NCBI GenBank assembly: GCA_040753155.1
Contig: JBFMEU010000002.1
Location: 5,633 to 69,632, forward strand
Direction: 5' to 3'
Source of the DNA: Bacillota bacterium
Lineage (GTDB): Bacteria; Bacillota; Desulfotomaculia; Desulfotomaculales; JBFMEU01
Length of the DNA stretch: 64,000 nucleotides
Shown piece by piece: positions 2,681 to 56,913 of the stretch; positions within the stretch are counted from its first letter, which is position 1, and the number at the start of each line of letters is the position of its first letter. The position numbers and the translations under genes are program-made. A model generated the notes under the pieces. The model did not search any database and was not told the DNA's origin. It saw only the letters and a program-made list of their open reading frames with translations.

Positions 2681-2718
2681 GTTTACCATAATCCGGAGTT
2701 GTTGGCCTGTTGAGGTTA

Positions 2719-2852
2719 TTGAACGAGACTTAATTCAGAGGGGGATTCAACCCCCTCTGAATGTTAGCCGAGTCCATACTGGACTTAACCGCCCTTTGAA
2801 ACCCGCCGCCTACAGAGGCGGGGGTCTTAGGGCGGTTAAGTCCAGTGATAAA
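2719..2852 (-). mobile_element. A element copy A1 (two-hairpin ~135-nt element)
   Basis: ttgaacgagactt-ATTCAGAGGGGGattcaaCCCCCTCTGAAT-...-GGACTTAACCGCCC...GGGCGGTTAAGTCC-agtGATAAA. Confidence 0.8.
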
Positions 2853-3146: not shown

Positions 3147-5630
3147 GTGAAAGACCGTTACGATTTTAAAGATCTTGAGGTCAAGTGGCAGCGCCGCTGG
3201 CATGAAGACAAGCTCTACGAGGCGCCTGATTTTTCCGGCCGGCCCAAGTACTACTGCCTGGAGATGTTTCCTTACCCCTCGGGCAAGCTGCACATGGGTC
3301 ATGTCCGGAATTACTCCATCGGGGATGTGGTGGCCCGGTTTAAAACCATGCAGGGGTTTCACGTGCTGCACCCCATGGGCTGGGACGCCTTCGGGCTGCC
3401 CGCTGAAAACGCCGCCATCAAGCACGGAAACATGCACCCGGCCCAGTGGACCATAGACAATATCAACACCATGCGCGATCAGCTCAAGCAGCTGGGGATT
3501 AGCTATGACTGGAGCCGGGAGGTGGCCACCTGCCACCCGGGCTACTACAAGTGGACCCAGTGGCTGTTCCTGCAGCTGTACCGCCGCGGCCTGGCCTATA
3601 AAAAGAAGGCGGCCGTGAACTGGTGCCCCTCCTGCGCCACGGTGCTGGCCAACGAGCAGGTAAAGGAGGGTATTTGCGAGCGCTGTAAGACTGATGTGGA
3701 GAAGAAAGAGCTGGAGCAGTGGTTCTTTAAGATCACCGACTACGCCGGGCGTCTGCTGGAGGATTTGGAAACCCTGCCGGGCTGGCCGGAAAAGGTCAAG
3801 ATCATGCAGGAACACTGGATTGGCCGCAGCGAGGGGGCGGAAATCAAATTCACCATTGACGGCCATGACGATGAGTTCATGGTCTTCACCACCCGGCCGG
3901 ACACGGTGTTCGGGGTCACCTATATGGTGCTGGCCCCAGAGCACCCCCTGGTGGAAAAGCTCATTGCGGGCAAGGAGCAGGCCGGTCAGGTGCGGGACTT
4001 TGTAAATAGAGTGCGCAACCTGAGCGAGATTGCCCGGACCTCCGTTGATGCGGAAAAGGAGGGCATCCTCACCGGCGCTTACTGTATTAACCCCCTGAAC
4101 GGCGAAAAAATTCCCATCCTGGTGGCCAACTACGTGCTGCTGGAGTACGGCACCGGCATGGTCATGGGCGTGCCGGCCCACGACCAGAGGGACTTTGAAT
4201 TTGCCCGGAAGTACAAGCTGCCCGTCCGGGTGGTCATCCAGCCCGAGGGTGTGGAACTGGACCCGGAAACCATGACCGGGGCCTGCGACGGCGAGGGGGT
4301 TATGGTTAATTCCGGCCAGTTTAATGGCGTCCCCAGCCAGGAGGGGATCCGCAAGGTTACGGAATACCTGGAGCAAAACAATCTGGGCCGGGGCCTGATC
4401 AACTACCGCCTGCGGGACTGGCTGATTTCCCGGCAGCGTTACTGGGGCGCCCCCATTCCCATTATTTACTGTGATCAGTGCGGCGCCGTACCGGTTCCCG
4501 ATGCCGACCTGCCGGTAATGCTGCCCCTGGAGGTGGCCTTTGAGCCCACCGGCCGCTCGCCCCTGAATGACAGCCCGGAATTTGTCAGCGCCGCCTGCCC
4601 CGGCTGCGGCGGGCCCGGCAGGCGGGAAACCGACACCATGGACACCTTCATGTGCTCCTCCTGGTACTACTACCGCTACACCAGCCCCCGGAACGAGGAG
4701 GCTGCCTGGGGCGGGGAGCAGGTAAAATACTGGCTGCCCGTGGACCAGTACATCGGCGGGGTGGAGCACGCCATCCTGCACCTGCTGTACAGCCGCTTCT
4801 TTACTAAGTTTCTTTATGACGCGGGCCTGATAGACAACCAGGAGCCCTTTACCAACCTGCTCACCCAGGGCATGGTGCTCAAAGACGGGGCCAAGATGAG
4901 CAAGTCCAAGGGCAATGTGGTCAGTCCCGAAGACATCGTGGGCCGCTACGGGGCCGACACCGCCCGGCTGTTCATCCTGTTCGCCGCCCCGCCGGAGCGG
5001 GACCTGGAGTGGAGCGATCAGGGCGTGGAGGGGTGCTACCGTTTCCTGAACCGGGTCTGGCGCCTGGTCCAGCCCCTGGCGGCAACCCTGCAGAGTAGCA
5101 GCGGCAAACCCAACGCCAACCTGGTGGGGGTAAACCGGGAAATGCGCCGGCTGACCCACCTGACCATCAAGAAAGTCACCGGGGACATTGGCAACCGGTT
5201 TAACTTCAACACCGCCGTCAGCGCCATCATGGAGCTGGTCAACGGCCTGTACCAGTACCGGGAGGTGCCGGAAACCGACCGGGACCCGGCGGTTCTCAAG
5301 GAGGCGGTGGAGTCCATGCTGCTCCTGCTGGCCCCCTTCGCCCCCCACGTGACCGAGGAACTGTGGGAGGTCACCGGCGGCGCCGGCAGCATTCACCTCC
5401 GGCCCTGGCCCGGGTTTGACCCGGCGGCCATGGCGGAGGACGAGGTGACCATAGTGGTGCAGATTAACGGCCGGGTCCGGGACCGGGTGCTGGCGCCCGC
5501 CGGCATACCGGCCGAAGAGATGAAGGAGCAGGTCATGGCCCAGCCCAGGGTTCAGGAACTGATTGCCGGCAAGCAGCTGGTCAAGGTCATCCCGGTGCCC
5601 GGGAAGCTGGTTAATATAGTGATTAAGTAA
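3147..5630 (+). CDS. leuS: Leucine--tRNA ligase
   Basis: 827 aa; HMGH ([10 protein letters not shown]) and KMSKS motifs; SD gggagg before GTG. Confidence 0.97.
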
Positions 5631-5819: not shown

Positions 5820-6041
5820 TTATTTCTGCAGCAGCAGCAGGATATCCTCGCCCTGCTCAGTAACCTCGATCCGCCAGCCCTTGTTTTCGGCCAGCCGGGA
5901 CACGTTTTCCCTGGCCGCCGTGTGGCTGACCAGCACCTTGATGGCGCCGCTGTCCATGGTGTCCATAACCCGCTTGGTCAACAGTACAGGCTCCGGGCAT
6001 AACAGGCCCCGGGCGTCAACTTCCCTTGCCAATGCTCGCAC
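5820..6041 (-). CDS. yedF: TusA/SirA-like sulfurtransferase (short YedF-like partner of YedE)
   Basis: VDARGLLCPEPVLLTK carries the CPxP motif. It overlaps the end of yedE by 26 nt. Confidence 0.7.
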   Translation of the reverse strand: MRALAREVDARGLLCPEPVLLTKRVMDTMDSGAIKVLVSHTAARENVSRLAENKGWRIEVTEQGEDILLLLQK

Positions 6042-7095
6042 CCCCCGTCACGGCCGCCGGCCTGTTCAAGATGCCGATTACGGCCACAGCAAGCATGCCC
6101 AGGATAACCGCCACCTGGCCGGCCACCGGCACACCGGCGGGGCTGGCCGCCAGGCCGAAGTTGTGGGCCACGGCGGCCCCGGCCATGATGCCCATAATGG
6201 TCACGGCGCAGTCGGTGTTCCCCTCCCCGGCGGCCACCAGCTGCCGCAGCGGGCACCCGCCCAGGAGCACAGCGGCCCAGCCGGCCAGGGTCATGCCCAA
6301 AAAGTTCCACAGGCCGTCGGTGTGGGCCACCGGCTGCCCCTCAAACCCGATTTTAAAGGCGCCCACCGCCAGGTTGCCGATCAGGGCCACAATGAAGATG
6401 GCCACAAAGCCGTATAACAGGTGGCCGTCCCGGAAAAAGATGTAGTCCCTGATGCCGCCCACCATGCACAGCCGGGAGCGCTGGGCCATTATACCCACAA
6501 TCAGGCCAGCCCCCAGGGCGATCCAGATGGGCGCCGCCATGGAGCCGGGGCCCTGCTCACTGAAGAAGATGAAGGCCGGCTGGGCCAGCAGCAGAATTAA
6601 CAGGACCACCATCAGGCCGGTAAAAAGGTAGCCGTTGCCCCGCTGCTGGGGTACGGCCCGGCCCAGGGTGAACCCGTTTTTGAGAAACTGTACGCCGATG
6701 AGTACCCCTGCCACCAGGCCGATCAGGCCGACCCCGGCGTTAAGGTCGCCCCCCGCCAGGCGCAGGACGGCCCGCACCGGGCAGCCCAGGAAAACCAGCA
6801 TGCCGATCATGGCAATGAAGCCCAGGATGAACCGGGTGAAGGCGCTGGAGCCCCCCACGGACCTGAATTCTTTGGTGGCCAGGGAGGTAAAAAAGGCCCC
6901 CAGCACCAGTCCGATAATCTCGGGTCTTATGTACTGCACCGGGACCGCCCGTTGGAAGCCCAGGCCGCCGGTAATGTCCCGCAAAAAACAGGCTATGCAG
7001 TAGCCCATGTTGGCGGGGTTGCCCAGCAGCACCAGGATGACCGCCATCAGTCCCAGGGTCCCCCCGGCAGCAAGAATCAATAACCGCTTACTCAA
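6016..7095 (-). CDS. yedE: YeeE/YedE family membrane protein (selenium/thiosulfate-related transporter)
   Basis: GNPANMGYCIACFLRDITGGLGF and a second LCMVGGIRD half-repeat; polytopic. I place the start at TTG 7095 (SD gaggggg). The ORF track extends to 7176, across the tRNA. Confidence 0.8.
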   Translation of the reverse strand: MSKRLLILAAGGTLGLMAVILVLLGNPANMGYCIACFLRDITGGLGFQRAVPVQYIRPEIIGLVLGAFFTSLATKEFRSVGGSSAFTRFILGFIAMIGMLVFLGCPVRAVLRLAGGDLNAGVGLIGLVAGVLIGVQFLKNGFTLGRAVPQQRGNGYLFTGLMVVLLILLLAQPAFIFFSEQGPGSMAAPIWIALGAGLIVGIMAQRSRLCMVGGIRDYIFFRDGHLLYGFVAIFIVALIGNLAVGAFKIGFEGQPVAHTDGLWNFLGMTLAGWAAVLLGGCPLRQLVAAGEGNTDCAVTIMGIMAGAAVAHNFGLAASPAGVPVAGQVAVILGMLAVAVIGILNRPAAVTGGASIGKGS

Positions 7096-7120
7096 AAAAT
7101 AATACCCCCTCGAAATGATA

Positions 7121-7217
7121 TGGAGGGGAGAAGTCGGAGTCGAACCGGACTCCCGCCTGGATCGCAGACAGGCCAACGGGTTTGCAGCCCGCGGGGGCCA
7201 CCGGACCCTTTCTCCCC
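7121..7217 (-). tRNA. tRNASec-like tRNA with cysteine identity (anticodon GCA, discriminator U73, 8-bp acceptor stem, long extra arm)
   Basis: Minus-strand sequence: GGGGAGAAAGGGTCCGGTGGCCCCCGCGGGCTGCAAACCCGTTGGCCTGTCTGCGATCCAGGCGGGAGTCCGGTTCGACTCCGACTTCTCCCCTCCA. Acceptor GGGGAGAA/TTCTCCCC. Anticodon loop CTGCAAA. Extra arm GCCTG/CAGGC. T loop GGTTCGACTCC. CCA is encoded. Confidence 0.8.
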
Positions 7218-10814: not shown

Positions 10815-10849
10815 ACAAAGCATTAAAAATTCCGGATTGCTGTCCGGGT

Positions 10850-10911
10850 GAGTCAATGGGGACGGTTCCGGGTGACTCACGAGAGTCACCCGGAACCGTC
10901 CCCATTGACTC
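10850..10911. repeat. D palindrome D1
   Basis: gagtcaatggggacggttccgggtgactc-acgag-agtcacccggaaccgtccccattgactc. Confidence 0.9.
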
Positions 10912-10925
10912 AAAGGCTTACGTTT

Positions 10926-11169
10926 TCAATTTTGATACTTGCTCCAAAACCTCGGCCCAGGTATTGGGCTCCACCATGCGCAGGCGCCTGTCCCTGATCC
11001 GGTAATCCACCCCCGGAATAGCTTTTTTATACAGTACGCCGGGGCCGTTACCTTTACCAGACGGTACAGCCCCAGGACATTGCGGGGCCCCAGATTGCTG
11101 TCCACCTCGGAGGAATAAATCCAGATCAGCCGGGGCAGTTTGACGACGGTGGAGGGGGTGAGCAAGTTA
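10926..11169 (-). pseudogene. Truncated, frameshifted duplicate of the 3' end of the LCP-like gene at 13106-13879
   Basis: Roughly 85-90% nucleotide identity, by eye, to 13106-13345. The similarity stops exactly at the A2 junction (gagcaagtt|agccc). Confidence 0.8.
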
Positions 11170-11285
11170 GCCCTTTGAAACCCGCATCTGTAGGCGGCGG
11201 GTTTCAAAGGGCGGTTAAGTCCAGTATGGACTCGGCTAACATTCAGAGGGGGTTGAATCCCTCTCTGAATGAAGTCTCGTTCAAC
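11170..11285 (+). mobile_element. A element copy A2 (5'-truncated)
   Basis: ...gggcggttaagtccagtatggactcggctaacattcagagggggttgaatccctctctgaatgaagtctcgttcaac, directly followed by H-element sequence catggcgtttccgaag. Confidence 0.8.
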
Positions 11286-11345
11286 CATGGCGTTTCCGAA
11301 GTATGAGATATACGGTCCATTCTGACTCCTGACTCCTGAGTACCT
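11286..11345 (+). repeat. H element fragment H4
   Basis: catggcgtttccgaagtatgagatatacggtccattctgactcctgactcctgagtacc. Confidence 0.8.
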
Positions 11346-12835: not shown

Positions 12836-12862
12836 TCGAAACGCCGCCGTAAGGCGGTTTTC

Positions 12863-12997
12863 TTTATCACTGAACTAATCCGCCCTAAGACCCCCGCCTC
12901 TGTAGGCGGCGGGTTTCAAAGGGCGGTTAAGTCCAGTATGGACTCGGCTAACATTCAGAGGGGGTTGAATCCCCCTCTGAATGAAGTCTCGTTCAAC
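12863..12997 (+). mobile_element. A element copy A3 (full length)
   Basis: TTTATC-actgaactaatccgccctaagaccc...ggcggttaagtccagtatggactcggctaacATTCAGAGGGGGttgaatCCCCCTCTGAATgaagtctcGTTCAAC. Confidence 0.85.
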
Positions 12998-13105
12998 CCC
13001 AGCGCCCGTCTTCACGCGCGGTAATCTCGGAATGACAAGAAGTACACAAAGCCCTGAGATTGTCGTCATCGTTCGTGCCGCCTGGCGTCTTCCTTTTAAT
13101 ATATA

Positions 13106-13879
13106 TTACGTTTTAAAATCTGACACCTGCTCCAAAACCTTGGTCCAGGTATGGGGCTCCACCACCCGCAGGCGTCTGTCCCTGATCTGGTAGTCCACCC
13201 CCGGGATGGCCTTTTTATACAGTACGCCGGGACCGTTTACCTTTACCAGGCGGTATAGCCCCAGGACATGGCGGGGCCCCAGGTTGCTGTCCACCTCGGT
13301 GGAGTAGATCCAGATCAGCTGGGGCAGTTTGACCACGGTGGAGGGGGTGAGCAAGTTGGCCGCCAGACCCCGGATCTCTGCCTGCAGGCTGTTGGGGCGG
13401 TCGTCGTAATTGCCCTCAAACACGTCCAGCAGGGTGGTCTCATTCTCGCCTATGTCAATGGCCCCCACCACTTCACTCATGTGGCTGAGGGTAGACTGGT
13501 CAATTATCACGTAATACTGGATGGGCTGCCGGAACATCTGCTCCAGCCTGGAGGTCAGCTCTGTTCGCCCCTGCCTGTAATAGGTATCGGCCACGGTAAC
13601 CTCAGCCTGCGGTGTGTCCAGGCAGATAAACAGGGGGATGGACACGATGCCCACCGGCCGGTCCCGGGAGAAGCTCAGCAGGGTTACTGCCTTCAGGTCT
13701 TGCTCATCCGTCCAGAACAGCAGCAGGTTGCCCGCAGTTGATACGGCCGGCGCCGGCAGTTGGTATTCAGGATAAACCGGGCCTGCGGCCCGGGCCGGGT
13801 GAGGGCTAACCAGAAGGAGGACCAGGCAGCAGGTAAGTACTGAGATTGCCGGTCTCACGACGCCACATCCTTTCCACAT
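13106..13879 (-). CDS. Secreted LytR-CpsA-Psr (LCP)-like protein, divergent
   Basis: N-terminal signal/TM segment. LLLFWTDEQD..AVTLLSFSRDRPVGIVSIPLFICLD...QYYVIIDQSTLSHMSEVVGAIDI parallels the LCP core layout. Confidence 0.5.
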   Translation of the reverse strand: MWKGCGVVRPAISVLTCCLVLLLVSPHPARAAGPVYPEYQLPAPAVSTAGNLLLFWTDEQDLKAVTLLSFSRDRPVGIVSIPLFICLDTPQAEVTVADTYYRQGRTELTSRLEQMFRQPIQYYVIIDQSTLSHMSEVVGAIDIGENETTLLDVFEGNYDDRPNSLQAEIRGLAANLLTPSTVVKLPQLIWIYSTEVDSNLGPRHVLGLYRLVKVNGPGVLYKKAIPGVDYQIRDRRLRVVEPHTWTKVLEQVSDFKT

Positions 13880-14083
13880 TACCGAAATTTAGGATACTTC
13901 TCTGGCATAAGTTTTATACATGGGCCAGGGCCAGCATCCCTGCTCATCGCTGGAAGAGGTTAAGAGTCAGACCGGCTGGGACCTTGAGATAAGCGTAAAT
14001 ACCCCCTTCACGGACCCGCCCGCCAAAGAGGAGTTGGGCGCCCTCAAAGAAATAGACCCCAAAGGGGTCTGAGTCATAGAATT

Positions 14084-14293
14084 TTAGTAATAGAACTCTG
14101 TTGGCGGATTCTGACAGTAGGACTTGACGCAGTTGCCCCGGGAGGCCCTGAACAAATCCTTGAACAGACGGTTGAACTCCTCGGTGGGCAGGCAATTGTA
14201 GCCGTTGGCATTGCTAATCCCGCCGTTAACCAGAAGGTTAAAGAAGATGTGATGGCGGGTTTGTTTGACGATCACCAGCTGGTATTTATTCAT
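14084..14293 (-). CDS. Hypothetical small protein (69 aa)
   Basis: ATG 14293 is preceded by SD ggaggg. No recognisable family. Adjacent protein-like ORF 13944-14195 is in another frame, so a frameshifted longer gene is possible. Confidence 0.3.
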   Translation of the reverse strand: MNKYQLVIVKQTRHHIFFNLLVNGGISNANGYNCLPTEEFNRLFKDLFRASRGNCVKSYCQNPPTEFYY

Positions 14294-16394: not shown

Positions 16395-16595
16395 TGGCCC
16401 GTCAAGTCAGGCGGCTTACCCGTTCCAGCTACAACAGAATGATTGCCGGAGTTTGCGGCGGGCTGGGCGAGTATTTTGGTTTGGACCCCACGGTGGTGCG
16501 GGTGGGCTATATAGTGTTTTCCGTACTTTCAGCGGCCTTTCCGGGCATTTTTGTTTACCTGCTGGCCTGGCTGATTGTACCCAGGGATGATTTCT

Positions 16596-16597
<2 letters not shown>
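16395..16597 (+). CDS. PspC-domain membrane protein
   Basis: RLTRSSYNRMIAGVCGGLGEYFGLDPTVVRVGYIVF. ATG 16395 follows gtgggag; the ORF track starts at 16319. Confidence 0.8.
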
Positions 16598-16832
<235 letters not shown>

Positions 16833-16843
16833 TAAAAAAAGGG

Positions 16844-18684: not shown

Positions 18685-21030
18685 TTACCTCCTTGGTGTG
18701 CCGGGTGTAGTTTTCACCTCTCCCAGGCGCCTTTCCAGGCGCCCCAATTCAGCCAGGCAGGCAGTTGTTTTTTGGCCGGCCGGCCTTTGTTCCAGCGCCT
18801 CCCGGAGATCTTTAAGCACTCCGGCCAGGGGCGCGGCCAGTTGTGAACCGGCTGCAAGCCGGATTGCCTCAATCAGGTGACGGAAGTCCTTGTCCCGGGG
18901 ATTTACGGATGCCCGGCGGGCCGAGAGGAAGAATAACCGCTCGTCGGCGCGGAGTGTGGTCGGGGATAGGCTCTCCCGGATGTAGTTCCTGACTTTTTCC
19001 CTTTCCCGGGGGCTCAGGGTGTCAGCAAAATTGATCACCAGCATGAGCCGGGCCGGGCCCTGCTGCAGGCTGCCGCCGCCCGGCCCCTGCCGGATTAGCC
19101 GGCTCAGGGCCGGCAGTTGGTCCCGGTCGGCGGTGTTCAGCACGTGCCTGGCGTTTAAGAAAAACAATACTGACTGGTCCCCCTTGTTGAACGAGATTTC
19201 ATTCAGAGGGGGATTCAATCCCCTCTGAATGTTAGCCGGGTCCATACTGGACTTAACCGCCCTTTGAAACCAGCTGCCTGCAGAGGCCGGGGTCTTAGGG
19301 CGGATTAGTTCAGTGATAAAACTTGAGGTTGTTTCCCGGTGCCTGCGGTGAACCGAGTCCAGGCCCGGTGTGTCAATCAGGACCAGGCCGCTCAGCAGTT
19401 CCGAGGGATGGGTGATTTCAACCCGGCTCAGCCGGAAGCTGTCCGGCCAGGCCAGGTGGCGTACGAGGGCCAGTTTGCCGGCGGCGGTATCCAGGCTCAG
19501 GGTTAAGGTATTTTCCTCCCGGAAGGTAACCTGGACGGCAACCGGCAAATCGGCGGTTATTCTTGTGGCCGGAACCGCCTGAAACAGGGTGGGCGCCGTG
19601 TTTAGCCCCGGCTGCCCGGCCAGGCCGGCGGCAAAGAGCCGGGCGGCGCTGTGGAGTTGATTCAGCAGTTGGTATTTACTTACCTTCTTGCGGCCGGCCT
19701 GGCTAATCAGCTCCAGACGGCCCAGCTCAGGCCCGGACTCCGGCTTCCCCAGCCAGCCGGTAAGAGCCTTGACTTCCTCCCGGCAGTACAGGGCCGCTTC
19801 TCCGTCCAGATGGATAACCGGCACGTCAATCTGCAGCGGATAGTGGAGGGTGGCCTGTTTAACCTGACCCTGCCTGACCCGGGTCAGGCAGGAGGTGGTG
19901 GGGCCGTCTCCGGTGGGCAGGATTTCCTCACCCAGCATGACGTTGATAAAAGTTGTCTTGCCGGAGGAAAAGCCCCCGGCTATAGTCACTGGAAATGCCC
20001 CTTGCTCCAGCCGGCGCCTCAGGGCGTCAGCTTGCCCGGTGGCCGGCAGGCCGGTCATTGAAGGGTCGGCGCAGAACCGGTCCAGCAGCTCCAGCAGGGA
20101 CCGCCTTACCTGGATCAGGCCCTTATTGGCCTGGTCCGGGTGGGCCGGCGGCTGATATTTCAGCCGGCCCTCCCGGGCCGGGCCGCTCAGGTTGCGGCGG
20201 GCGGCAATTCTGGCCCCGGCCCGGGACTGCAGGAGTTCCCCGGCCTGTAAAATTGAGGCCGCCCTTTGCTTGAGGTCCCATAAATCAGCCAGGAACTCCA
20301 GGTCGCCGGGCCGGGCCAGGGTGGTCTTCAGGGCTTTGGGGATAGCCTCGTCCATAGTCCGCAAATTCCGGTTGAGTTCCTCAATCCGGCGGGCGGCTGC
20401 CTCCACTTCCAGCAGGGTGCGCAGGGAGTTTACAGCTGCAGGGTTGGTAATGTCAATGGCCAAGGGCTGCAAGCCGGCTTTGAAAATTTGCCGCAGGCAG
20501 GCTGCGGTAACCCCCGGGGCAGAGTCGTCCGGATGGCCGGTGTTATGATTCAAGATGAAAATAATGTCCCGGGGATTAATTTGGCGCCGCCGGGCCAGTT
20601 CCTCCAGAAACTGCTTGCCGGCATTATCAAGGCCCCGCTGGTGCAAAAGGAAGAGCGCCAAATCGGCGCCGGCCGCCGCCTCCATGGCGGCCGCCCGGTG
20701 CTCCGGGCTGGTGTCGAAGCCAGGTGTGTCCAAGAGCAGGCACTTTTGCAGCAGCCTGCAGGGCAGAGCCACCTCCCGTACCCTCCGGGCGCGGGCCGGG
20801 CCGGAGACGGCGGGGCCATAAACATACTTGACAGTCACCATGGTGGTGGGAACCACATCCACTGGTGCGACATAATTTTCCAGCAGGGCGTTAATTAAAG
20901 TGGATTTGCCGGCGTTATAGGGGCCGGCAACAGCCACCGTCGGCAGGCGGACTCCGGCAGGCCAGTTCTCCAGCAGCATGTCCGCCTGGCGAATAAAGTT
21001 TTCTGCCGCCGTCATGGTATATACCTCCAA
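18685..21030 (-). CDS. Tandem-GTPase dynamin-like protein (BDLP/DynA-like), carrying an in-frame A-element insertion
   Basis: Module 1: G1 GPYNAGKST and G3 DTPGFD. Module 2: G1 GGFSSGKTT, G2 region PTGDGPTTSCLT, G3 DTPGLDS and NFAD. 781 aa. Confidence 0.75.
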   Translation of the reverse strand: MEVYTMTAAENFIRQADMLLENWPAGVRLPTVAVAGPYNAGKSTLINALLENYVAPVDVVPTTMVTVKYVYGPAVSGPARARRVREVALPCRLLQKCLLLDTPGFDTSPEHRAAAMEAAAGADLALFLLHQRGLDNAGKQFLEELARRRQINPRDIIFILNHNTGHPDDSAPGVTAACLRQIFKAGLQPLAIDITNPAAVNSLRTLLEVEAAARRIEELNRNLRTMDEAIPKALKTTLARPGDLEFLADLWDLKQRAASILQAGELLQSRAGARIAARRNLSGPAREGRLKYQPPAHPDQANKGLIQVRRSLLELLDRFCADPSMTGLPATGQADALRRRLEQGAFPVTIAGGFSSGKTTFINVMLGEEILPTGDGPTTSCLTRVRQGQVKQATLHYPLQIDVPVIHLDGEAALYCREEVKALTGWLGKPESGPELGRLELISQAGRKKVSKYQLLNQLHSAARLFAAGLAGQPGLNTAPTLFQAVPATRITADLPVAVQVTFREENTLTLSLDTAAGKLALVRHLAWPDSFRLSRVEITHPSELLSGLVLIDTPGLDSVHRRHRETTSSFITELIRPKTPASAGSWFQRAVKSSMDPANIQRGLNPPLNEISFNKGDQSVLFFLNARHVLNTADRDQLPALSRLIRQGPGGGSLQQGPARLMLVINFADTLSPREREKVRNYIRESLSPTTLRADERLFFLSARRASVNPRDKDFRHLIEAIRLAAGSQLAAPLAGVLKDLREALEQRPAGQKTTACLAELGRLERRLGEVKTTPGTPRR
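19186..19320 (-). mobile_element. A element copy A4, inserted in frame (135 nt = 45 codons) in the dynamin-like gene
   Basis: gttgaacgagatttcATTCAGAGGGGGattcaatCCCCTCTGAAT...ggcggattagttcagtGATAAA. It is translated as ...LIRPKTPASAGSWFQRAVKSSMDPANIQRGLNPPLNEISF... Confidence 0.85.
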
Positions 21031-21096
21031 TTGGTTATACTGTTATATATTTACTGTGATCAGGCTGTAAATATACCGAAAATAGTTACCCGCTTG

Positions 21097-21241
21097 GTAA
21101 CTATTCAGGAGTCGGGAGTCAGGAGTCGGGAGTCAGGAGTCGGGAGTCAGAAGTCAGGAGTCAGAAGTCAGGAGTCAGGAGTCAGAATGAGAAAACCGGC
21201 GAAAACATTACTTCTGAATTCTGAATACCTGAATAAGTAAC
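21097..21241 (+). repeat. H element copy H6 (minimal: 11 heptamers, 8 codons, 3' arm)
   Basis: gtaactattc-(aggagtc/gggagtc/agaagtc)x11-agaatgagaaaaccggcgaaaacatt-acttctgaattctgaatacctgaataagtaac. Confidence 0.9.
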
Positions 21242-21335
21242 TGGTTTTTTGTGTGTCAGCACCGGGAATAGGCCGGTGCTATTGCTCCTGCAATTTCCTT
21301 ATGCTATAATAACTAAGTGTGTAAAACCATAGCCT

Positions 21336-21474
21336 ATAAAGAAGACTTGGTTCAGGTGGAGTTTTAACCCATACGTTGGGGACATTCCTGTCCTCAGAGA
21401 AATACCCAAGCTTCAGCAGGTGTGTCCCCTTTCCTTATGCGAGGGCGGGGTCTTACAGGCTGTGCGAAGATAAA
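21336..21474 (+). repeat. C element copy C1
   Basis: ataaaGAAGACTTGGTTCAGgtggagttttaacccatacgttGGGGACAttcctgtcctcagagaaatacccaagcttcagcaggtgTGTCCCCtttccttatgcgagggcggggtCTTACAGGCTGTGCGAAGATAAAg. Confidence 0.85.
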
Positions 21475-22870: not shown

Positions 22871-23767
22871 ATGGCCAGCCAAGATAGTAGGCGTAGTGTT
22901 GGCGGTCTTTTGGCCGCAGCCCGGGCTTACCTGAGGGAATGTGGCTCGGAGAGCCCCGGCCTTGATGCCGAGGTGCTTCTGGCCCACTGCCTGGGGGCCG
23001 GCCGGCTGGATCTGTACCGGGCGCCGGACCGGATCCCGGACAGCGGCCAGGCTTCCGGGTACCTGGATTTGATTGCCAGGCGCGGCCGGGGGGAACCGGT
23101 GGCCTATCTGACCGGACATAAGGAGTTTATGGGGCTCGACCTGGCGGTCGGGCCTCCTGTGCTGATTCCCCGCCCGGAAACCGAGCTGCTGGTGGAGCAG
23201 GCCCTGGAACTGCTGGGCTTATCCCTGGCGGAAAGACCGGGCGGCCGGCTGGCGGTGGATGTGGGCGCCGGCAGCGGGGCCATTGCTGTCAGCCTGGCGG
23301 TTTTTATGCCCCGGGTGCGGGTGCTGGCCACCGATATATCCGGGGAGGCCCTGGCCGTGGCCCGCCGCAATGCGGCCCGCCACGGGGTGGCAAGGCAGGT
23401 TTCCTTTTTTCAGGGAGACTTGCTGACCCCTCTGACTATACCCGCCCTGCAGGGGCAGGTGGACCTGGTGGCCGCCAACCTGCCCTACATCCCGGCCGGT
23501 GACCTGGAGGCTTTGCCCCGGGATGTCCGGGCCTACGAGCCCCGGCTGGCCCTGAACGGCGGTCCTGACGGCCTGTCCCTCTACCGCCGGCTGGTGCCCG
23601 ATGCCGGCAGGCTGCTGCGGCCCGGCGGCTTTTTGCTGATGGAGATTGGCCCCGGCCAGGGGCGGGCCTGCCTGGGCCTGGTACCGGCCCCCGTCTGGGA
23701 GAGTGTGCTGCTGCCCGACCTGGCCGGGCGGGAGCGTCTGGTGGTGGCAGTTAAAATGAGTCAATAG
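22871..23767 (+). CDS. prmC: Release-factor glutamine N5-methyltransferase
   Basis: VDVGAGSGAIAV SAM motif and the NPPY-type motif (here ANLPYIP). Immediately follows prfA. Confidence 0.88.
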   Translation: MASQDSRRSVGGLLAAARAYLRECGSESPGLDAEVLLAHCLGAGRLDLYRAPDRIPDSGQASGYLDLIARRGRGEPVAYLTGHKEFMGLDLAVGPPVLIPRPETELLVEQALELLGLSLAERPGGRLAVDVGAGSGAIAVSLAVFMPRVRVLATDISGEALAVARRNAARHGVARQVSFFQGDLLTPLTIPALQGQVDLVAANLPYIPAGDLEALPRDVRAYEPRLALNGGPDGLSLYRRLVPDAGRLLRPGGFLLMEIGPGQGRACLGLVPAPVWESVLLPDLAGRERLVVAVKMSQ

Positions 23768-23818
23768 GGACGGTTCCTGGTGACTCGCGCGAGTCACCCG
23801 AAACCGTCCCTATTGACT
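23759..23818. repeat. D palindrome D2, overlapping both convergent stop codons
   Basis: agtcaatagggacggttcctggtgactcgcgcgagtcacccgaaaccgtccctattgact. Confidence 0.9.
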
Positions 23819-24492
23819 TACAGCAAATTGGTTCCCGCGTGCCAGGCGGTGGCGGCGCCGATAAACATGACCGCCAGCCCGGTGACTGCCGCCAGGCGGG
23901 TCCAGGCGCGGCGGCTGATAAAATCCCCGGCCAGGTGGGAAACCTTGAGGAAAACCAGTCCCACACCAATCATGGCCAGGGCGGCCCCGGCACCAAAGGC
24001 CAGCACCACGCCCAGGCCCGCGGCCAGCGTTCCGGCACTGATGGATAAAAGCAGCGCCGCCAGGGCCCCGGGGCAGGGCATCAGCCCGTTCATGAAACCC
24101 AGCAGGACCAGGGTTGAAAGGTCCAGGGGGCGGTCTTGCTTGCTCAGGGAGAAATGATGGTGGTTGCAGCAGGGCTTGCGCCTGGGCAGCAGCCGGTAGC
24201 CCACCGCCACAATCAGCAGGCCGGATAAAAGCTGCAGCCACAGCCTGATCCGGTCCGGGGTCAATTCGGTGCCGGTGGCCACCAGGGCTGCCGCCGAGTG
24301 GGCCGTCACCGCCAGCAACACCACCACCAGGGTGTGGGTGGCGGCGGAGATAAGCCCCAGCAGAACAGCATGTATTGCCCGGCCCCGGGAAAGGACCAGG
24401 TAGGCCCCCATCACCCCCTTGCCGTGGCCGGGTTCCAGAGCGTGCAAAGCTCCCAGGCCAAAGGCGGAAAAAAGATAAAGCAGGTAGCTCAT
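23818..24492 (-). CDS. NicO/UreH-like metal (Ni/Co/Zn) transporter family membrane protein
   Basis: LHALEPGHGKG motif, His/Cys-rich loop KPCCNHHH, and GFMNGLMPCPGAL. Next to zur-znuACB. Confidence 0.55.
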   Translation of the reverse strand: MSYLLYLFSAFGLGALHALEPGHGKGVMGAYLVLSRGRAIHAVLLGLISAATHTLVVVLLAVTAHSAAALVATGTELTPDRIRLWLQLLSGLLIVAVGYRLLPRRKPCCNHHHFSLSKQDRPLDLSTLVLLGFMNGLMPCPGALAALLLSISAGTLAAGLGVVLAFGAGAALAMIGVGLVFLKVSHLAGDFISRRAWTRLAAVTGLAVMFIGAATAWHAGTNLL

Positions 24493-24527
24493 CGGGCGGA
24501 ATCCTCCTCGTAATGGCAGTGATAAAC

Positions 24528-24756
24528 GATAAAGAAGACTTGGTTCAGGTGGGGTTTTAACCCATACGTTGGGGACATTCCTCCGAAGGAGGTGTGTCCC
24601 CTACCCGCTAAACCTTAGTCGCACTTATTTCGAGCTTACAGCCTGTTAATCCCATTAGTTGGGGACATTCCTGTCCTCAGAGAAATACCCAAGCTTCAGC
24701 AGGTGTGTCCCCTTTCCTTATGCGGTGGCGGGGTCTTACAGGCTGTGCGAAGATAA
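24528..24756 (+). repeat. C element copy C2 (double-module version)
   Basis: Module 1 contains GGGGACAttcctccgaaggaggtgTGTCCCC. An internal cttacagcctgt then leads to module 2, GGGGACAttcctgtcctcag...caggtgTGTCCCC. Ends cttacaggctgtgcgaaGATAAA. Confidence 0.85.
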
Positions 24757-24757
24757 A

Positions 24758-24866
24758 CCGCAAGTACGAACAGGTTCGTCTTCTGCCATACCAGTAATCC
24801 TCAAACGTTTTCGCTGGTTTTCTCATTCTGACTCCTGATTCCTGACTTCTGACTCCTGAGTAGTTA
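24758..24866 (-). repeat. H element copy H7 (5' half only, truncated at the TTTATC site by C2)
   Basis: The reverse complement reads gtaataactactc(aggagtc..)agaatgagaaaaccagcgaaaacgtttgaggattactggtatggcagaagacgaacctgttcgtacttgcgg|tttatc. Confidence 0.85.
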
Positions 24867-24927
24867 TTACGTTTAAACATATTCAGAGCTCGTACACCTT
24901 TATGACGGCGCCCCTGGATTATTTTTC

Positions 24928-27252: not shown

Positions 27253-28131
27253 GTGGATTACATGTTTGAGTACGAGTTTATGGTCCGGGCCATGCTTGCC
27301 GGCCTGGTGGCCGGCATAATTTGCCCCGCGGTAGGGGTTTTCGTGGTTATGCGGCGCTATTCCTTTATGGCCGATACCCTGGCCCATGTTTCCCTGGCCG
27401 GGGTGGCGGCGGGCGCCCTGCTGGGCGTATATCCCGCCGTTACCACCCTTGGCTTTGCCATGGCCGCCGCCACAGTCATTGAGAAGCTGCGCTCCGGGCC
27501 AAGGCTGTACGGCGAGGCCGTGCTGGCGCTGATGATGAGCGGCGGTCTGGCCCTGGCCGTGGTGCTGATCAGCCTGTCCCGGGGCATGAGCATTGACATC
27601 TTCGGCTATCTTTTTGGCAGCGTCCTTACCGTCGGCCCGGGTGACCTGTGGCTGATCGCCGGCCTGGGCTGCGCTGTTCTGGCCGTGATAATATTATTCT
27701 ACAAGGAGCTCTACTACATATCCTTTGATGAAGAGGCAGCCCGGGTGGCCGGCCTGCCGGTGGATCGTTTGAATTTTATCTTTGTGCTGCTGGTGGCGGT
27801 TACCGTGGCGGTCTCCATGCGCATTGTGGGGACCCTGCTGGTCAGCGCCCTGATGGTGATTCCCGTGCTCACCGCCCTGCTGGTGGCCGGCAGCTTCCGC
27901 AGCGCCTTCATAACCGCCGTATTCCTGGGAGTGGTATCAGTTGCCCTGGGGCTTACCGGCTCATACTACCTGGGCATTGCCGCCGGCGGCGCCGTAGTCC
28001 TTACCGCCCTGGTCTTTTTCGTCCTTACCCTGAGCGGCAAACAGCTGCGCCAGGCCTGGCAGCGCCGCCTGTTGGCCCCGGGCGCCCCGAAAAAGGTGAA
28101 AGAGGAACTGGTAACAGGGGATGGCTCTTGA
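27253..28131 (+). CDS. znuB: Zinc ABC transporter permease
   Basis: 292 aa, polytopic, ABC-3 family pattern (FDEEAARVAGLPV). Confidence 0.88.
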   Translation: MDYMFEYEFMVRAMLAGLVAGIICPAVGVFVVMRRYSFMADTLAHVSLAGVAAGALLGVYPAVTTLGFAMAAATVIEKLRSGPRLYGEAVLALMMSGGLALAVVLISLSRGMSIDIFGYLFGSVLTVGPGDLWLIAGLGCAVLAVIILFYKELYYISFDEEAARVAGLPVDRLNFIFVLLVAVTVAVSMRIVGTLLVSALMVIPVLTALLVAGSFRSAFITAVFLGVVSVALGLTGSYYLGIAAGGAVVLTALVFFVLTLSGKQLRQAWQRRLLAPGAPKKVKEELVTGDGS

Positions 28132-28191
28132 GTCAAGGGGGACGGTTCCTGGCGACTCACGTGAGTCGCCAGGAACCGTCCCCCTTGACTC
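28130..28191. repeat. D palindrome D3 (perfect 31+31 nt), overlapping the znuB stop codon
   Basis: gagtcaagggggacggttcctggcgactcac|gtgagtcgccaggaaccgtcccccttgactc. Confidence 0.95.
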
Positions 28192-28206
28192 AAAACGGAG
28201 GTGGAC

Positions 28207-31033: not shown

Positions 31034-31099
31034 CTGGAGGAAACCCGCGGTTTGTGTAGAACTGAATTCCGTAGGGATTTGGAACAACAACTCCGGCGT

Positions 31100-31246
31100 C
31101 TTACAGGCTGTACGAAGATAAAGAAGACTTGGTTCAGGGGGGGGTTTAACCCATACGTTGGGGACATTCCTCCGAAGGAGGTGTGTCTCCTATCCGCTAA
31201 ACCTTAGTCGCACTTATTTCGAGTTTACAGCTTGTACGAAGATAAA
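31100..31246 (+). repeat. C element copy C3 (module 1 bounded by two copies of the 23-nt end sequence)
   Basis: cttacaggctgtacgaagataaa-gaagacttggttcag...GGGGACAttcctccgaaggaggtgTGTCTCC...tcgcacttatttcgag-tttacagcttgtacgaagataaa. Confidence 0.85.
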
Positions 31247-33073: not shown

Positions 33074-33721
33074 TTACGTGAAGTGTTGAAAAAGTGCTTT
33101 GTCATATTTCTGGGTTGTACTCAAAATGTAGATGTCATAATAATTTCTTGGGCGTGTGCTGAATATGCTACGGTTTAGAATCGTCTCGACTTTCTCTGCC
33201 ATAACTGTTTCAATATTGTAGCCCCAGAGACGGATACGGACAGATTCGTCAAAAATACCGCTGAATTCATAGGGAACAGCGGACGGCGTCATCACATCCC
33301 CGGCAGAAATATCAATGGAAAGCGGCGTTACGATAGTGTCATACACGGCATTCATTCTCACACGAAATCCGCCGTAGCGGTCATCCTTACGGATGGGGAT
33401 GACGGAGACGACATTAAATTTCACATCATCATTTAAGTTAATACTGCAGATGCTTTGAACCGCTTGTGTTATCTGCCCTTCCGTCAGGGGCAGATCGCGC
33501 AGCGTAGCGTCCAGATCCATGGTCGAGCGGGTATCCAAACCCACGATGGCCGCAACAAGCATTCCGCCCTTAATTATGAATTTTTCCTGATATTCTGATT
33601 TGGACAGACGCTCCAAAAAGCGTTCGAACATGTAGTTCTGCAAAACTACCTGAGCCGCAATGTTATTCTATTTTGCATAGCGGTTGATGCGACCTTTCAG
33701 GCTTATGGCCTTGGAACTCAT
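33074..33721 (-). pseudogene. AbiEii/AbiGii-family nucleotidyltransferase toxin, with premature in-frame TAG and probably C-terminally short; no AbiEi partner
   Basis: MSSKAISLKGRINRYAK*NNIAAQVVLQNYMFERFLERLSKSEYQEKFIIKGGML... The TAG is at 33668-33670. An A element abuts the start codon. Confidence 0.7.
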
Positions 33722-33732
33722 AGTAGTACATC

Positions 33733-33850
33733 TCCGCCCTAAGACCCCCGCCTCTGTAGGCGGCGGGTTTCAAAGGGCGGTTAAGTCCAGTATGAACTCG
33801 GCTAACATTCAAAGGGGGTTGAATCCCCCTCTGAATGAAGTCTCGTTCAA
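33733..33850 (+). mobile_element. A element copy A5 (5'-truncated); contains the stop codon of the MCP gene
   Basis: ccgccctaagacccccgcctctgtaggcggcgggtttcaaagggcggttaagtccagtatgaactcggctaacattcaaagggggttgaatccccctctgaatgaagtctcgttcaa. Confidence 0.8.
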
Positions 33851-35457
33851 GAACTTACACGAAACCTGTCTATCTGGCTTTTAATGCTGCCGGCCAGATT
33901 GTCAAGCTCTCCGGCCAGTGAAGATAACATATCCACCGAGCAAACGTAGTCCGGTACGGTCTTCGCTCCCCCGGTCCCCGTAAGAGTCTCTACGGTCGCC
34001 GCCACTTCTTTTATGCCTTTTTTGATATGCCCGGAGGCATCGGCTATTTCATTTATTCTTTCGCCGGTGTCCTTTATTCCGCCGTATATTTCCTTGATCA
34101 AAAACCTTGCCTCGTCCGCCGCCCCCGACCCTTCCCGGGCTACCTCGTAACCTCTTTCCAGTATTATTTTAACATTTTCACTTTCTTTTAAGACTAGCTG
34201 TGCTATTCCGGCGATCTCCCCGCTGGCTGCGGACGACTGGCCGGCCAGTTTCCTCACCTCTTCGGCCACCACAGTGAATCCCAGTCCGTTTTCTCCGGCC
34301 CTTGCCGCCTCTATGGACGCGTTTAACGCCAGAAGGTTGGTCTGGCTGGCTATGGTTTTCACCTGTTCCACTATTTCGAAAACCGTTCTGATGAGGCTGT
34401 GCAGATTATTAATAGATCTGACGCCCTCAATGGTCAGATCGTGACTTTCGTTCATCTTGTTCATAAGCTTCTCCAGTCGAATCCTGCTTTTTTCGGATAT
34501 ATCCATCAGATTTTGACTGGATGCATCTGTCTCTTCTATGCTGTCTGATATTTTTCCGATGGATTCTTCCATCTTTTTCACTGCCCAGCCGGTATCCCTC
34601 ATAAGATAAGTCTGTCTCTCGGCCACCTGGCCAAGCTGCCGGCTGGTGTCGGTCAGCGTGCTGACCGTTGTCTGGGATCCCTTAATAAGGGTTTCCAGTC
34701 CGGAAAGCATTTTATTTAGGCTTCCGCCGATCTTTTCCATCTCGTTGCCGGCGTTTTTATCCTCCACCCTTGTTGAAAGGTCACCCCCACCGGCCCTGTT
34801 CATAACGGCAATCAGGTTTTCCAGAGGCCCGGCCATCCTCCTGGCGCCCAGGCAGCAAATCATAAATGCCGCAAGCACGGAACTTATGCCGACAAGAAAA
34901 GAAATGTGCCTCAGCCGGTAAACCGGATCAAGGTAATCATCCTCCGCCAAGCCTACAACGTAAAGCCAGTTTTTAGCCGGAATGACTTCATAAGCTATGG
35001 TGTTTTTACCGTCGCCGGTGTCTTTGCTGAAAAGGCCGTCTTTATTATTAAATAGATCCCTTATTTCCTCTTTGGTCAGTTGGATTTCCATACCTTCGGA
35101 CAGCATGACACTGCCATCCATGTCGTAAACTTGAATGCCGGCCCGTATGTTTTTATCCCGGAAACCATTGTTTTCATTATTGATATATACCTGCGCGTAA
35201 TTCAATAGCTGTCTGCTGTCGTAGGTATTTGCCATCATGGCAATATTTTCTCCGGCATGCTTGGCCGAGACCGCTATTCTTTCCTCCATTAACTCTTTCA
35301 GGTTTTGCTTGCCCGTGTTGTAAACCGCGAATCCCAGGCTGCCAACCGCTGTCACTATCACGAGAGTGAAAAGCGCAAGCAGTTTATACTGTATTCCCAG
35401 TTTATGCCATGATAGAAAAAGAGAAACTTTCCGGCCGAATGTTTTAATTCTTTGCAC
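33847..35457 (-). CDS. Methyl-accepting chemotaxis protein (N-terminal TM, extracellular sensor, HAMP, signalling domain)
   Basis: ASQTNLLALNASIEAARAGENGLGFTVVAEEVRKLA is the highly conserved MCP hairpin tip. 536 aa. Confidence 0.9.
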   Translation of the reverse strand: MQRIKTFGRKVSLFLSWHKLGIQYKLLALFTLVIVTAVGSLGFAVYNTGKQNLKELMEERIAVSAKHAGENIAMMANTYDSRQLLNYAQVYINNENNGFRDKNIRAGIQVYDMDGSVMLSEGMEIQLTKEEIRDLFNNKDGLFSKDTGDGKNTIAYEVIPAKNWLYVVGLAEDDYLDPVYRLRHISFLVGISSVLAAFMICCLGARRMAGPLENLIAVMNRAGGGDLSTRVEDKNAGNEMEKIGGSLNKMLSGLETLIKGSQTTVSTLTDTSRQLGQVAERQTYLMRDTGWAVKKMEESIGKISDSIEETDASSQNLMDISEKSRIRLEKLMNKMNESHDLTIEGVRSINNLHSLIRTVFEIVEQVKTIASQTNLLALNASIEAARAGENGLGFTVVAEEVRKLAGQSSAASGEIAGIAQLVLKESENVKIILERGYEVAREGSGAADEARFLIKEIYGGIKDTGERINEIADASGHIKKGIKEVAATVETLTGTGGAKTVPDYVCSVDMLSSLAGELDNLAGSIKSQIDRFRVSS

Positions 35458-35682
35458 CTATTACCACCCCGCTGACTCCTGAGTAGTTGCGTTTTTTCTA
35501 AGTTGTTATTAAAAAAACCGGCTGTTGCCGGAATTAAAAGGGAGAAGGGATATCTTGCGCGAGTTCTCATTAAATAAAGCCTTTGTATCGAAGACTTTAT
35601 TTAATCACTGCTATAATAACGAATTGTTTTTAAGCTGCAATTAAGGTTTATCATAATATTGGTTAAGGAAGTGTAAAATTTT

Positions 35683-36043
35683 TCAGAAGTCAGAAGTCAG
35701 AAGTCAGAAGTCAGGAGTCAGGAGTCAGGAGTCAGAATGAGAAAACCAGCGAAAACATCTGAAGATTTACTGGTATGGCGGAAGTCTTAATAGGCGCCTG
35801 TTTGCACTTGCGGTTCAACGTTTATCACTGAACTAATCCGCCCTAAGACCCCCGCCTCTGTAGGCGGCGGGTTTCAAAGGGCGGTTAAGTCCAGTATGGA
35901 CTCGGCTAACATTCAGAGGGGGTTGAATCCCCCTCTGAATGAAGTCTCGTTCAACCATTGCAAGAGGTTAGTAAATTGCTGGAAGCATATTCTCGGGGCA
36001 TTCTGAATCCTGACTTCTGAATTCTGAATACCTGAATAGTAAC
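35683..36043 (+). repeat. H element copy H8, interrupted by A element A6
   Basis: (agaagtc/aggagtc) array, then agaatgagaaaaccagcgaaaacatctgaagat...cttgcggttcaacgTTTATC[A6]cattgcaagagg...ggaagcatattctcggggcattctgaatcctgacttctgaattctgaatacctgaatagtaac. Confidence 0.9.
35821..35955 (+). mobile_element. A element copy A6 (full length, nested in H8)
   Basis: tttatcactgaactaatccgccctaagaccc...ctctgaatgaagtctcgttcaac. Same sequence as A3. Confidence 0.9.
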
Positions 36044-36074
36044 AAATTATTAAAGCAAATTTGTCCGTAAGACT

Positions 36075-36190: not shown

Positions 36191-36284
36191 ATAAAGAAGA
36201 CTTGGTTCAGGCGGGGTTTTAACCCATACGTTGGGGACATTCCTTATGCGAGGGCGGGGTCTTACAGGCTGTGCGAAGATGAAA
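36191..36284 (+). repeat. C element copy C4 (short recombinant form)
   Basis: ataaagaagacttggttcaggcggggttttaacccatacgttggggacattcct|tatgcgagggcggggtcttacaggctgtgcgaagatgaaa. Confidence 0.8.
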
Positions 36285-40574: not shown

Positions 40575-40729
40575 AGAAGACTTGGTTCAGTCGTACTTAT
40601 TTCGAGTTTACAGCCTGTTAATCCCATTAGTTGGGGACATTCCTGTCCCCAGAGAAATACCCAAGCTTCAGCAGGTGTGGCCCCTTTCCTTATGCGAGGG
40701 CGGGATCTTACAGGCTGTGCGAAGATAAA
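40571..40729 (+). repeat. C element copy C5 (inside the atp operon, between atpI and atpB)
   Basis: ataaagaagacttggttcag|tcgtacttatttcgagtttacagcctgt-taatcccattagttGGGGACAttcctgtcc...caggtgTGGCCCC...cttacaggctgtgcgaagataaa. The atpI stop lies in the left junction. Confidence 0.85.
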
Positions 40730-54228: not shown

Positions 54229-54247
54229 TCCCTGAAAAAGATATTTG

Positions 54248-54448
54248 GTTATTATTCAGGTATTCAGAATTCAGGAGTCAGGATTCAGAATGGACCGTAT
54301 AGCTCATACTTCGGAAACGCCATGGTTGAACGATAAACGGCAAGTACGAACAGGCGCGCCTTCTGCCATGCCAGTAAATCTTCAAATGTTTTCGCTGGTT
54401 TTCTCATTCTGACTCCTGACTTCTGACTCCTGACTCCTGAGTAGTTAC
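54248..54448 (-). repeat. H element copy H9 (40-codon ORF remnant with the apparently ancestral VYRST codons)
   Basis: The reverse complement encodes MRKPAKTFEDLLAWQKARLFVLAVYRSTMAFPKYELYGPF*. Arms are ctcaggagtcaggagtcagaagtcaggagtcagaatg and cattctgaatcctgactcctgaattctgaatacctgaataataac. Confidence 0.9.
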
Positions 54449-56312: not shown

Positions 56313-56425
<113 letters not shown>

Positions 56426-56880: not shown

Positions 56881-56913
56881 CAATAGGATGCTATTGTATT
56901 CAAGAACAAAGGG

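Follow-up and report, generated by a model that had tools for sequence, protein, structure and literature searches.

Mobile elements of the IS200/IS605 type move by 'peel-and-paste'. The features that define them and their ends-only derivatives, the palindrome-associated transposable elements (PATEs), are hairpins but no inverted repeats at the ends, insertion at a 5-nt target that is not duplicated, and an end motif similar to this target. The omega-RNA of TnpB/IscB, a structured and strand-specific RNA, lies at the right end of IS200/IS605 elements, and PATEs can carry one. PATEs have been described in Haloquadratum (PMC3119063), in Geobacillus as derivatives of ISGst elements (PMC10055086) and in Halanaerobium (PMC7290912), and left and right hairpins that are unlike each other are documented in some IS200/IS605 elements (PMC7290912). 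In Geobacillus, Meers et al. described PATE-like copies; the target of ISGst2 there is TTTAT and its end motif TTCAC, the two differing at positions 3 and 5 (PMC10055086). Palindromic repeats are also known from Rickettsia, where the Rickettsia palindromic elements (RPE) occur as in-frame inserts in unrelated housekeeping genes and are otherwise intergenic (review PMC10969869).

Here we analyse a dispersed structured repeat, the A element, in a 64,000-nt stretch of DNA from a Bacillota bacterium (the window, meaning the whole stretch). An earlier reading of the window, made from the sequence only, had described a repeat of about 135 nt with two hairpins that is compatible with open reading frames. 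The A element is a real PATE-like family, previously uncatalogued.

Six copies of the A element in the window

A covariance model of the element (R1) matches six loci in the window and no others (Table 1), exactly those listed in the sequence-only reading, and a repeat finder grouped the same six. The window contains 13 occurrences of the 12-mer arm of hairpin 1, ATTCAGAGGGGG, where 0.64 would be expected, and 8 of the 14-mer arm of hairpin 2, where 0.78 would be.

Table 1. Positions in the window of the A-element copies, with their matches to covariance model R1, and of two associated features.
Feature	Position	Strand	R1 match	Target pentamer	Remark
A1, complete 129-nt core	2719..2847	-	2716-2852 (-)	TTTAT, 2848-2852 (-)	
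A2, 5'-truncated	11170..11284	+	11151-11287 (+)		
Terminator-like hairpin and T-tract	12843..12867	+			its TTTAT is the insertion site of A3
A3, complete 129-nt core	12868..12996	+	12863-12999 (+)	TTTAT, 12863-12867	CACTGAAC...CGTTCAA
Dynamin-family GTPase gene, 781-aa ORF	18685..21030	-			Pfam (PF00350, PF01926); host gene of A4
A4, complete 129-nt core	19187..19315	-	19184-19320 (-)	TTTAT, 19316-19320 (-)	in frame (43 codons) in the dynamin-family GTPase gene
A5, 5'-truncated	33733..33850	+	33717-33853 (+)		core without its first 11 nt
A6, complete 129-nt core	35826..35954	+	35821-35957 (+)	TTTAT, 35821-35825	

The copies A1, A3, A4 and A6 are clean, complete insertions. A1 is intergenic, between rsfS (2324-2680) and leuS (3147-5630). 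A3 lies 3' of a PIN-domain gene, where it entered the T-tract that belongs to a terminator-like hairpin (12843-12858, followed by TTTCTTTAT/C, the slash here and below marking the junction). The core of A6 is identical to that of A3; A6 sits within a heptamer-bounded composite element, inside a fragment of a four-helix-bundle ORF. The other two copies are truncated. In A2 the 5' arm of hairpin 2 has been replaced, the new sequence CCTTTGAAACCCGC being the perfect complement of the 3' arm, which looks like fold-back repair at the hairpin; on its left side this copy is fused to a truncated duplicate of an LCP-like gene, and on its right side it runs on into a composite element. The terminal TTCAA of A5 forms the TGA at which the MCP gene of the opposite strand stops. 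The start of the neighbouring AbiEii ORF had been proposed to be truncated at this copy, but its Pfam match begins at profile position 1 and stops at 178/238, at the far end of the gene and not at the element. The view that the element marks rearrangement breakpoints is thus borne out for the truncated copies A2 and A5, but not for the four clean ones.

The composite element is bounded by inverted heptamer arrays, (GGAGTCA/GAATTCA)n ... (TGACTCC/TGAATTC)n, and carries the start of a four-helix-bundle ORF, MRKPAKTFEDLLVWQKAH, resembling the 23S rRNA intervening-sequence protein. It is found in the window at about 1581-1771, 2240-2313, 16595-16836, 21078-21234, 24796-24876, 35656-36051, 54237-54457 and 56290-56884. 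A2, A6 and two copies in a related strain (locus L032, a metagenome contig) sit inside it, so that some A copies spread by hitch-hiking. The same strain differs from the window next to hisG: about 13780-14160 of the window and L032:10620-11407 are 100% identical upstream of the gene and then diverge totally at a cluster of B, A and heptamer repeats, a structural difference at strain level.

Several other repeats were seen in the window. Near-perfect palindromes of 62-66 nt (TGAGTCAATGGGGACGGTTCC...GGAACCGTCCCCATTGACTCA) lie between convergent or adjacent genes at 10849-10914, 23757-23822, 28129-28194 and 61029-61092. A 12-nt tandem repeat, (CCTTCTTTAATG)n, inside an ORF at 61204-62097 on the minus strand, and a (GAGTGTG)n heptamer array account for 61307-61419 and 480-619.

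A 129-nt unit inserted 3' of a TTYAW pentamer

The unit that moves, CACTGAAC...CGTTCAA, measures 129 nt and not about 135 nt as had been proposed; the leading TTTAT counted into the longer unit is flanking DNA, namely the target motif. The comparison of empty and filled sites at the dynamin gene establishes that this unit was inserted after TTYAT without duplication: the empty orthologous site reads ...TTCAT/CAAGGGGG..., and the filled one reads ...TTTAT, then the element, then CAAGGGGG.... At base resolution, the empty orthologue in a related species (locus L031) reads GACTTCAT/CAAGGGGGACCAGTCAGT, and the filled window reads AGTTTTAT followed by CACTGAAC...CGTTCAA and then CAAGGGGGACCAGTCAGT. 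A 2-nt duplication of CA at the dynamin site was considered and rejected, as CA is not repeated in the 3' flanks of the other copies. Precise removal of the element gives back the host reading frames.

The boundaries were then assessed over 32 copies from the window and other genomes. The element always follows directly on a TTYAW pentamer: in front of CACTG, positions -5 to -1 hold 1.03, 1.36, 0.80, 2.00 and 0.65 bits of information, and from -6 outward the flank holds at most 0.07 bits. The pentamer is TTTAT in 10 of these copies, TTTAA in 7 and TTCAA in 4. It differs among near-identical copies within a single genome, that of Paradesulfitobacterium ferrireducens, and is therefore a target motif and not a part of the element. 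At the other end, every one of the 32 copies terminates in TTCAA, and the 3' flank is uninformative, so that no target duplication is present. The core measures 129 nt in 19/32 copies. The two ends have in common only a 5-nt inverted match (TGAAC...GTTCA), and there are no terminal inverted repeats. In the related strain, an A copy is inserted directly after the end of an element of a second repeat family, B (L032, ...AAGTCTTCTTTAT/CACTG), a tandem arrangement that is expected if the end motif doubles as a target. The target motif, the lack of a target duplication and the mobile nature of the element had all been missed in the sequence-only reading.

Family B is present in the window at 21334-21474, 24520-24757 (-), 31079-31235 (-), 36191-36283 and 40589-40729. 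It starts directly after TTTAT, ends in ...CTGAACCAAGTCTTCTTTAT, which is homologous to the A end CTGAATGAAGTCTCGTTCAA, has a GTATGG motif in common with A and gives no Rfam match. It is probably another PATE family that uses the same transposase as A.

Among the copies from other genomes, some depart from the standard layout. A 69-nt mini-variant without the hairpin-2 domain (L016:2968-3036), of the form TTTAA/CACTGAAC-TCGACTAAC-hairpin 1-...TTCAA, apparently arose via deletion between GAAC and GGAC repeats. In a Lutispora MAG, a module of about 42 nt, CAGGGCACCTTCTCNTGCCCCTNNCGGGCAATTCACCTTG, stands at two different positions in two A copies (L012:3108-3289 and L015:3521-3699), leaving the open frame of the copy in L015 intact; it may be an even smaller nested mobile unit. 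In a Thermoanaerobacterales MAG and a metagenome contig (L023:606-741 and L028:1320-1455), about 62 nt break up an A copy shortly ahead of hairpin 1. The first 40 of these nucleotides constitute another kind of right end (hairpin ATGATA...TATCAT followed by GAAACTTTCGTTTAT), which points to a broader superfamily whose ends take the form GAA-N-AGTYTCGTTYAW.

Secondary structure and covariation

The RNA fold of A3 has an energy of -74.6 kcal/mol (z = -10.1); for the opposite strand z = -9.0. With RNAalifold on 22 copies, two domains were obtained, a left one in which long-range pairing surrounds the inner hairpin and a right one around hairpin 1. On its left side the element is structured by helix 1, helix 2 and the inner hairpin; a right hairpin, a 9-nt linker and the terminal TTCAA follow. 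The left and right hairpins bear no resemblance to each other. The outer stem of hairpin 2, described earlier as about 14 bp in the family, forms a perfect 14-bp helix (GGACTTAACCGCCC/GGGCGGTTAAGTCC) in A1 only, the fold of which reaches -85.8 kcal/mol; the other copies read GAACTAATCCGCCC and have three mismatches.

The helices are under selection across the family, as supported by a covariation analysis of 30 model-aligned copies. Changes on both sides of a pair were found at 11 pairs, against 2.9 +/- 1.1 in shuffled alignments (0/500 reached the observed value) and 3-5 in slid controls; 97.4% of the cells are paired, a figure that leans towards structure since the alignment was fitted to the model. 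The helix TGGAC/GTTCA is kept in 30/30 copies with one compensated change. The sequence-only reading was right that this is a dispersed repeat with selected helices; the compensation is real only once copies from other genomes are added. Its own example of a compensated change, A4, did not hold. A4 folds at -55.9 kcal/mol, 19 kcal/mol worse than A3, and its substitutions break pairs, so that A4 is structurally degraded, as expected for a copy that evolves under protein constraints.

At several positions G.U pairs are fixed or frequent, for example in 29/30 sequences at one pair. On the complementary strand such pairs would turn into C.A mismatches, so that one strand is the functional one; the pairing pattern fits single-stranded DNA or RNA, and a double-stranded cruciform does not fit it. 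All genera sampled share the same unpaired central junction, GGTTAAGTCCAGTATGGACTCGRCTAAC, in a sample selected on a 20-mer that covers its first 15 nt. TGAA at the left end and TGGA in the centre can both pair with TTYA.

An open frame and copies within genes

Only one of the six frames of the element is free of stops, namely frame 0 of the plus strand, with 43 codons. A frame open on each strand had been described; the plus-strand frame stands, but the minus-strand frame meets a TAG four codons short of the element end in every copy except A1. In the window, the recurring peptides in overlapping ORFs are real and, as had been proposed, translations of the element explain spurious ORFs. Such translations account for at least 37 'hypothetical proteins' of 47-81 aa, which come mostly from one Bacillota MAG, and for several ORFs of the window, a point that bears on annotation. 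The explanation holds for the small ORFs but not for the 781-aa ORF through A4, which is a real gene.

A4 is a genuine in-frame insert of 43 aa in a dynamin-family gene. Without the element the gene reads ...SSFI/KGDQSV..., as in the orthologues, and the closest homologue that lacks the insert reads DFI/KGDQSV. In an alignment of ten dynamin homologues, the 43-aa block is present only in a 98%-identical strain variant, which has a 15-nt in-frame deletion in its copy, and the other nine read through. Such insertions recur, as 5/32 DNA copies lie in frame within long ORFs (the dynamin gene and those of a HelD-like helicase, a PAS-GGDEF-EAL protein and a GlcF-like Fe-S oxidoreductase). The copy in the HelD-like helicase is orthologous in two species, and there -1 and +1 frameshifts compensate and restore the frame, which shows in this one case that the host frame is under selection after insertion. 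An exhaustive profile search of 1.84 billion representative proteins added an rRNA methylase, a FliK-like protein and YceD as hosts. The insert splits the Pfam domains EAL (at profile positions 91/92) and rRNA_methylase (at 40/41). In these cases the element has entered housekeeping genes of free-living Clostridia in frame, in the manner of RPE.

Family-wide selection for the open frame was considered and rejected, since the subfamilies of 116-128 nt contain stops and the frame is not kept in these divergent members. We read the open frame as a property of a successful subfamily combined with selection against disruptive insertions. A unit of the main subfamily, with 43 codons in its one stop-free frame, survives as a 43-aa insert if the TTY-AWn codon pair that it enters is in phase and lies where the protein tolerates an insert; the remaining intragenic insertions are presumably lost, and intergenic copies give rise to small spurious ORFs.

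Distribution of the family

Species-representative genomes were scanned with an exact invariant 20-mer, a sample that understates the diversity of the family, and at least 26 loci were found. Among the matches listed, 13 loci belong to P. ferrireducens, and the further hosts are Lutispora (two species), Desulfitobacterium sp. THU1 and MAGs of Clostridiaceae, Clostridiales and Thermoanaerobacterales; a match in Bradyrhizobium was set aside as chance. The left and right halves of the element are 85-98% identical to the window consensus. An identity of about 90% across several Bacillota genera implies recent horizontal spread and a transposase. The Bacillota MAG with locus tags AB1815_, from which most of the small element ORFs come, or a close relative of it is the probable source of the window. 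Part of the window recurs in a JGI metagenome contig with 98-100% identity. BLAST against plasmid and phage collections gave no match to the element, a scan of viral contigs for its right end gave none either, and a literature search with three strings of its sequence yielded no paper.

A comparison with Rfam, also suggested in the sequence-only reading, revealed no characterised RNA family that explains the element at gathering or at permissive thresholds. In Rfam 15 nothing falls on it at the gathering threshold, the best sub-threshold matches scoring 19-24 bits against thresholds of 40-100; those obtained under permissive thresholds (sbcD at 20.9 bits, the miRNA mir-4599 and HDV-like) are generic hairpins and were rejected as chance. 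The only Rfam match at threshold in the window is a selenocysteine tRNA gene at 7125-7217 (-) (RF01852, 51.1 bits), which is overlapped by a 386-aa ORF at 6016-7176 (-) with a sulphur-transport domain (PF04143).

Nature of the element and rival explanations

With a probability of about 0.7, we place the A element in the IS200/IS605 family as a non-autonomous, PATE-like 'ends-only' unit of 129 nt, because it has hairpins at its ends without inverted repeats, a 5-nt target, a target-like end motif and no duplication. A Y1 HUH transposase (TnpA) acting in trans would take out one strand and put it back in as single-stranded DNA. This enzyme would attach to the hairpins and cleave 3' of the flanking pentamer (TAM) and 3' of the terminal TTCAA (TEM); the TGAA of the left end and the TGGA of the centre may serve as DNA guides that pair with TTYA. 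No covariation of these putative guides with the target motif could be shown.

The transposase was sought in several ways. Neither a Y1 transposase nor TnpB was found in the window and 34 related loci (317 kb) by tblastn with IS608 and IS200 TnpA or by scans for HUH/Y and TnpB RuvC motifs; the best tblastn match to TnpA, in locus L001, is a B12-binding protein and was discarded. When metagenomes were scanned for the left-end 20-mer without the right half (not followed by G), no full-length IS was recovered, the matches being element variants and one chance match. Pfam analysis of 10 large window ORFs gave housekeeping genes only, and two contigs reached via small element ORFs carry no transposase. 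The local GC skew is positive on the element strand in 21/34 copies, which is not significant (p = 0.23). We count against a PATE-like element the lack of a transposase in 317 kb and of a full-length IS in the metagenome scan, the lack of a significant orientation bias, the unlike hairpins and the invariant central junction. The invariance of this junction beyond the selecting 20-mer exceeds, to our knowledge, what a TnpA substrate needs.

A junction that is unpaired and invariant across the genera sampled is one of the features expected if the element were chiefly a structured small-RNA gene, for example a PATE-borne omega-RNA used in trans by TnpB/IscB with its guide taken from the DNA 3' of TTCAA. 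This reading is compatible with mobility, and the RNA would then explain the strong conservation; it is favoured further by the strand-specific structure, the frequent G.U pairs and the covariation, and by the report that PATEs 'often encode omega-RNAs' (PMC10055086). We nevertheless regard it as unlikely. No Rfam family matches, permissive thresholds included, no promoter-like site was seen in or beside A3, and no tnpB or iscB gene was found in 317 kb, in which respects the A element differs from the TnpB/IscB omega-RNA; with both transposon ends inside 129 nt there is also small space for a full scaffold, and single-stranded DNA tolerates G.T pairs too, so that the pairing does not separate RNA from single-stranded DNA. 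It is distinctly improbable that the 129-nt unit is a self-contained mobile guide-RNA gene, made of an omega-RNA-like scaffold with a guide from 3' of TTCAA and served in trans by a TnpB/IscB-type nuclease. If it were, the 43-codon frame would let the unit persist inside genes, and an RPE-like 'protein-compatible' parasite would be combined with an RNA-guided homing system.

Other kinds of repeat resemble the A element less closely. REP/BIME-type elements kept up by a domesticated RAYT (TnpA-REP) transposase likewise have hairpins, are mostly intergenic and strand-specific and produce no duplication, and RAYTs are related to IS200 TnpA; yet REPs are single palindromes of 20-40 nt with a 5' GTAG-type head, usually in inverted pairs, whereas the A element is a 129-nt unit in which two unlike hairpins stand in fixed order and whose target and end motif are each defined over 5 nt. 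As no HUH gene was found in 317 kb, and as about 90% identity across genera suggests horizontal spread and not a host-bound REP system, we think an origin of this kind very improbable. To a classical MITE, the deletion derivative of a DDE-transposase IS that moves by cut-and-paste via terminal inverted repeats with a target-site duplication, we give hardly any weight. The element is small, non-coding, multi-copy and hairpin-forming and has the inverted match TGAAC...GTTCA near its ends, but the ends have nothing in common beyond these 5 nt, the sequence beyond TTCAA bears no relation to that ahead of the element, the insertion at the empty site is clean and the 5' flank motif mirrors the 3' terminal motif rather than being duplicated. 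Just as hard to sustain is a host regulatory element (a terminator, attenuator or mRNA-stabilising hairpin) multiplied by recombination and not by transposition: the hairpins are very stable and A3 follows directly after the terminator of a gene, but neither hairpin is followed by a T-run, the copies occur in both orientations relative to flanking genes and inside coding sequences, and the flanking pentamer together with presence and absence between related genomes indicates insertion events. An integron attC site was rejected as well, the copies being scattered among core genes in both orientations and without a cassette array.

Comparison with known systems

PATEs and the A element are alike in being short and non-coding, with hairpins at both ends, no inverted repeats and no target duplication, and in their insertion 3' of a 5-nt motif, their target-like end motif and their tandem insertion beside the end of another element. 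The A element differs from them in that neither an autonomous IS nor a TnpA to match it came to light in 317 kb, in that the whole 129-nt unit, centre included, is conserved across the genera sampled (which were selected by a shared central 20-mer), and in its one stop-free frame with recurrent in-frame copies inside genes. The A element also resembles ISGst2 of Geobacillus stearothermophilus, a member of the IS605 group whose host also belongs to the phylum Bacillota: with TTTAT as TAM in the window copies and TTCAA as TEM, the A element has the same difference at positions 3 and 5, a likeness of motif pattern only. ISGst2 carries tnpB and an omega-RNA, whereas the A element carries no gene.

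Small size, structure, multiple copies, occasional in-frame fusions and spurious ORFs are also common to the A element and the classical MITEs (Correia, ERIC, RUP and BOX), but these have terminal inverted repeats and target duplications and the A element has neither. To RPE it is similar in behaviour, since both are palindromic repeats of some 100-150 nt that keep an open frame and recur as in-frame inserts, the hosts of the A element comprising a dynamin GTPase, a HelD-like helicase, a PAS-GGDEF-EAL protein, a GlcF-like protein, an rRNA methylase, FliK and YceD; this is a likeness of behaviour and not a claim of membership. RPE belong to a different phylum and are probably unrelated in sequence, the in-frame share of the A element (5/32 DNA copies) is below theirs, and its open frame is not kept in divergent subfamilies. 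The review of RPE gives no mechanism for their insertion (PMC10969869). The clear signature of the A element, a TTYAW target without duplication, provides a testable route by which palindromic repeats enter genes without destroying them.
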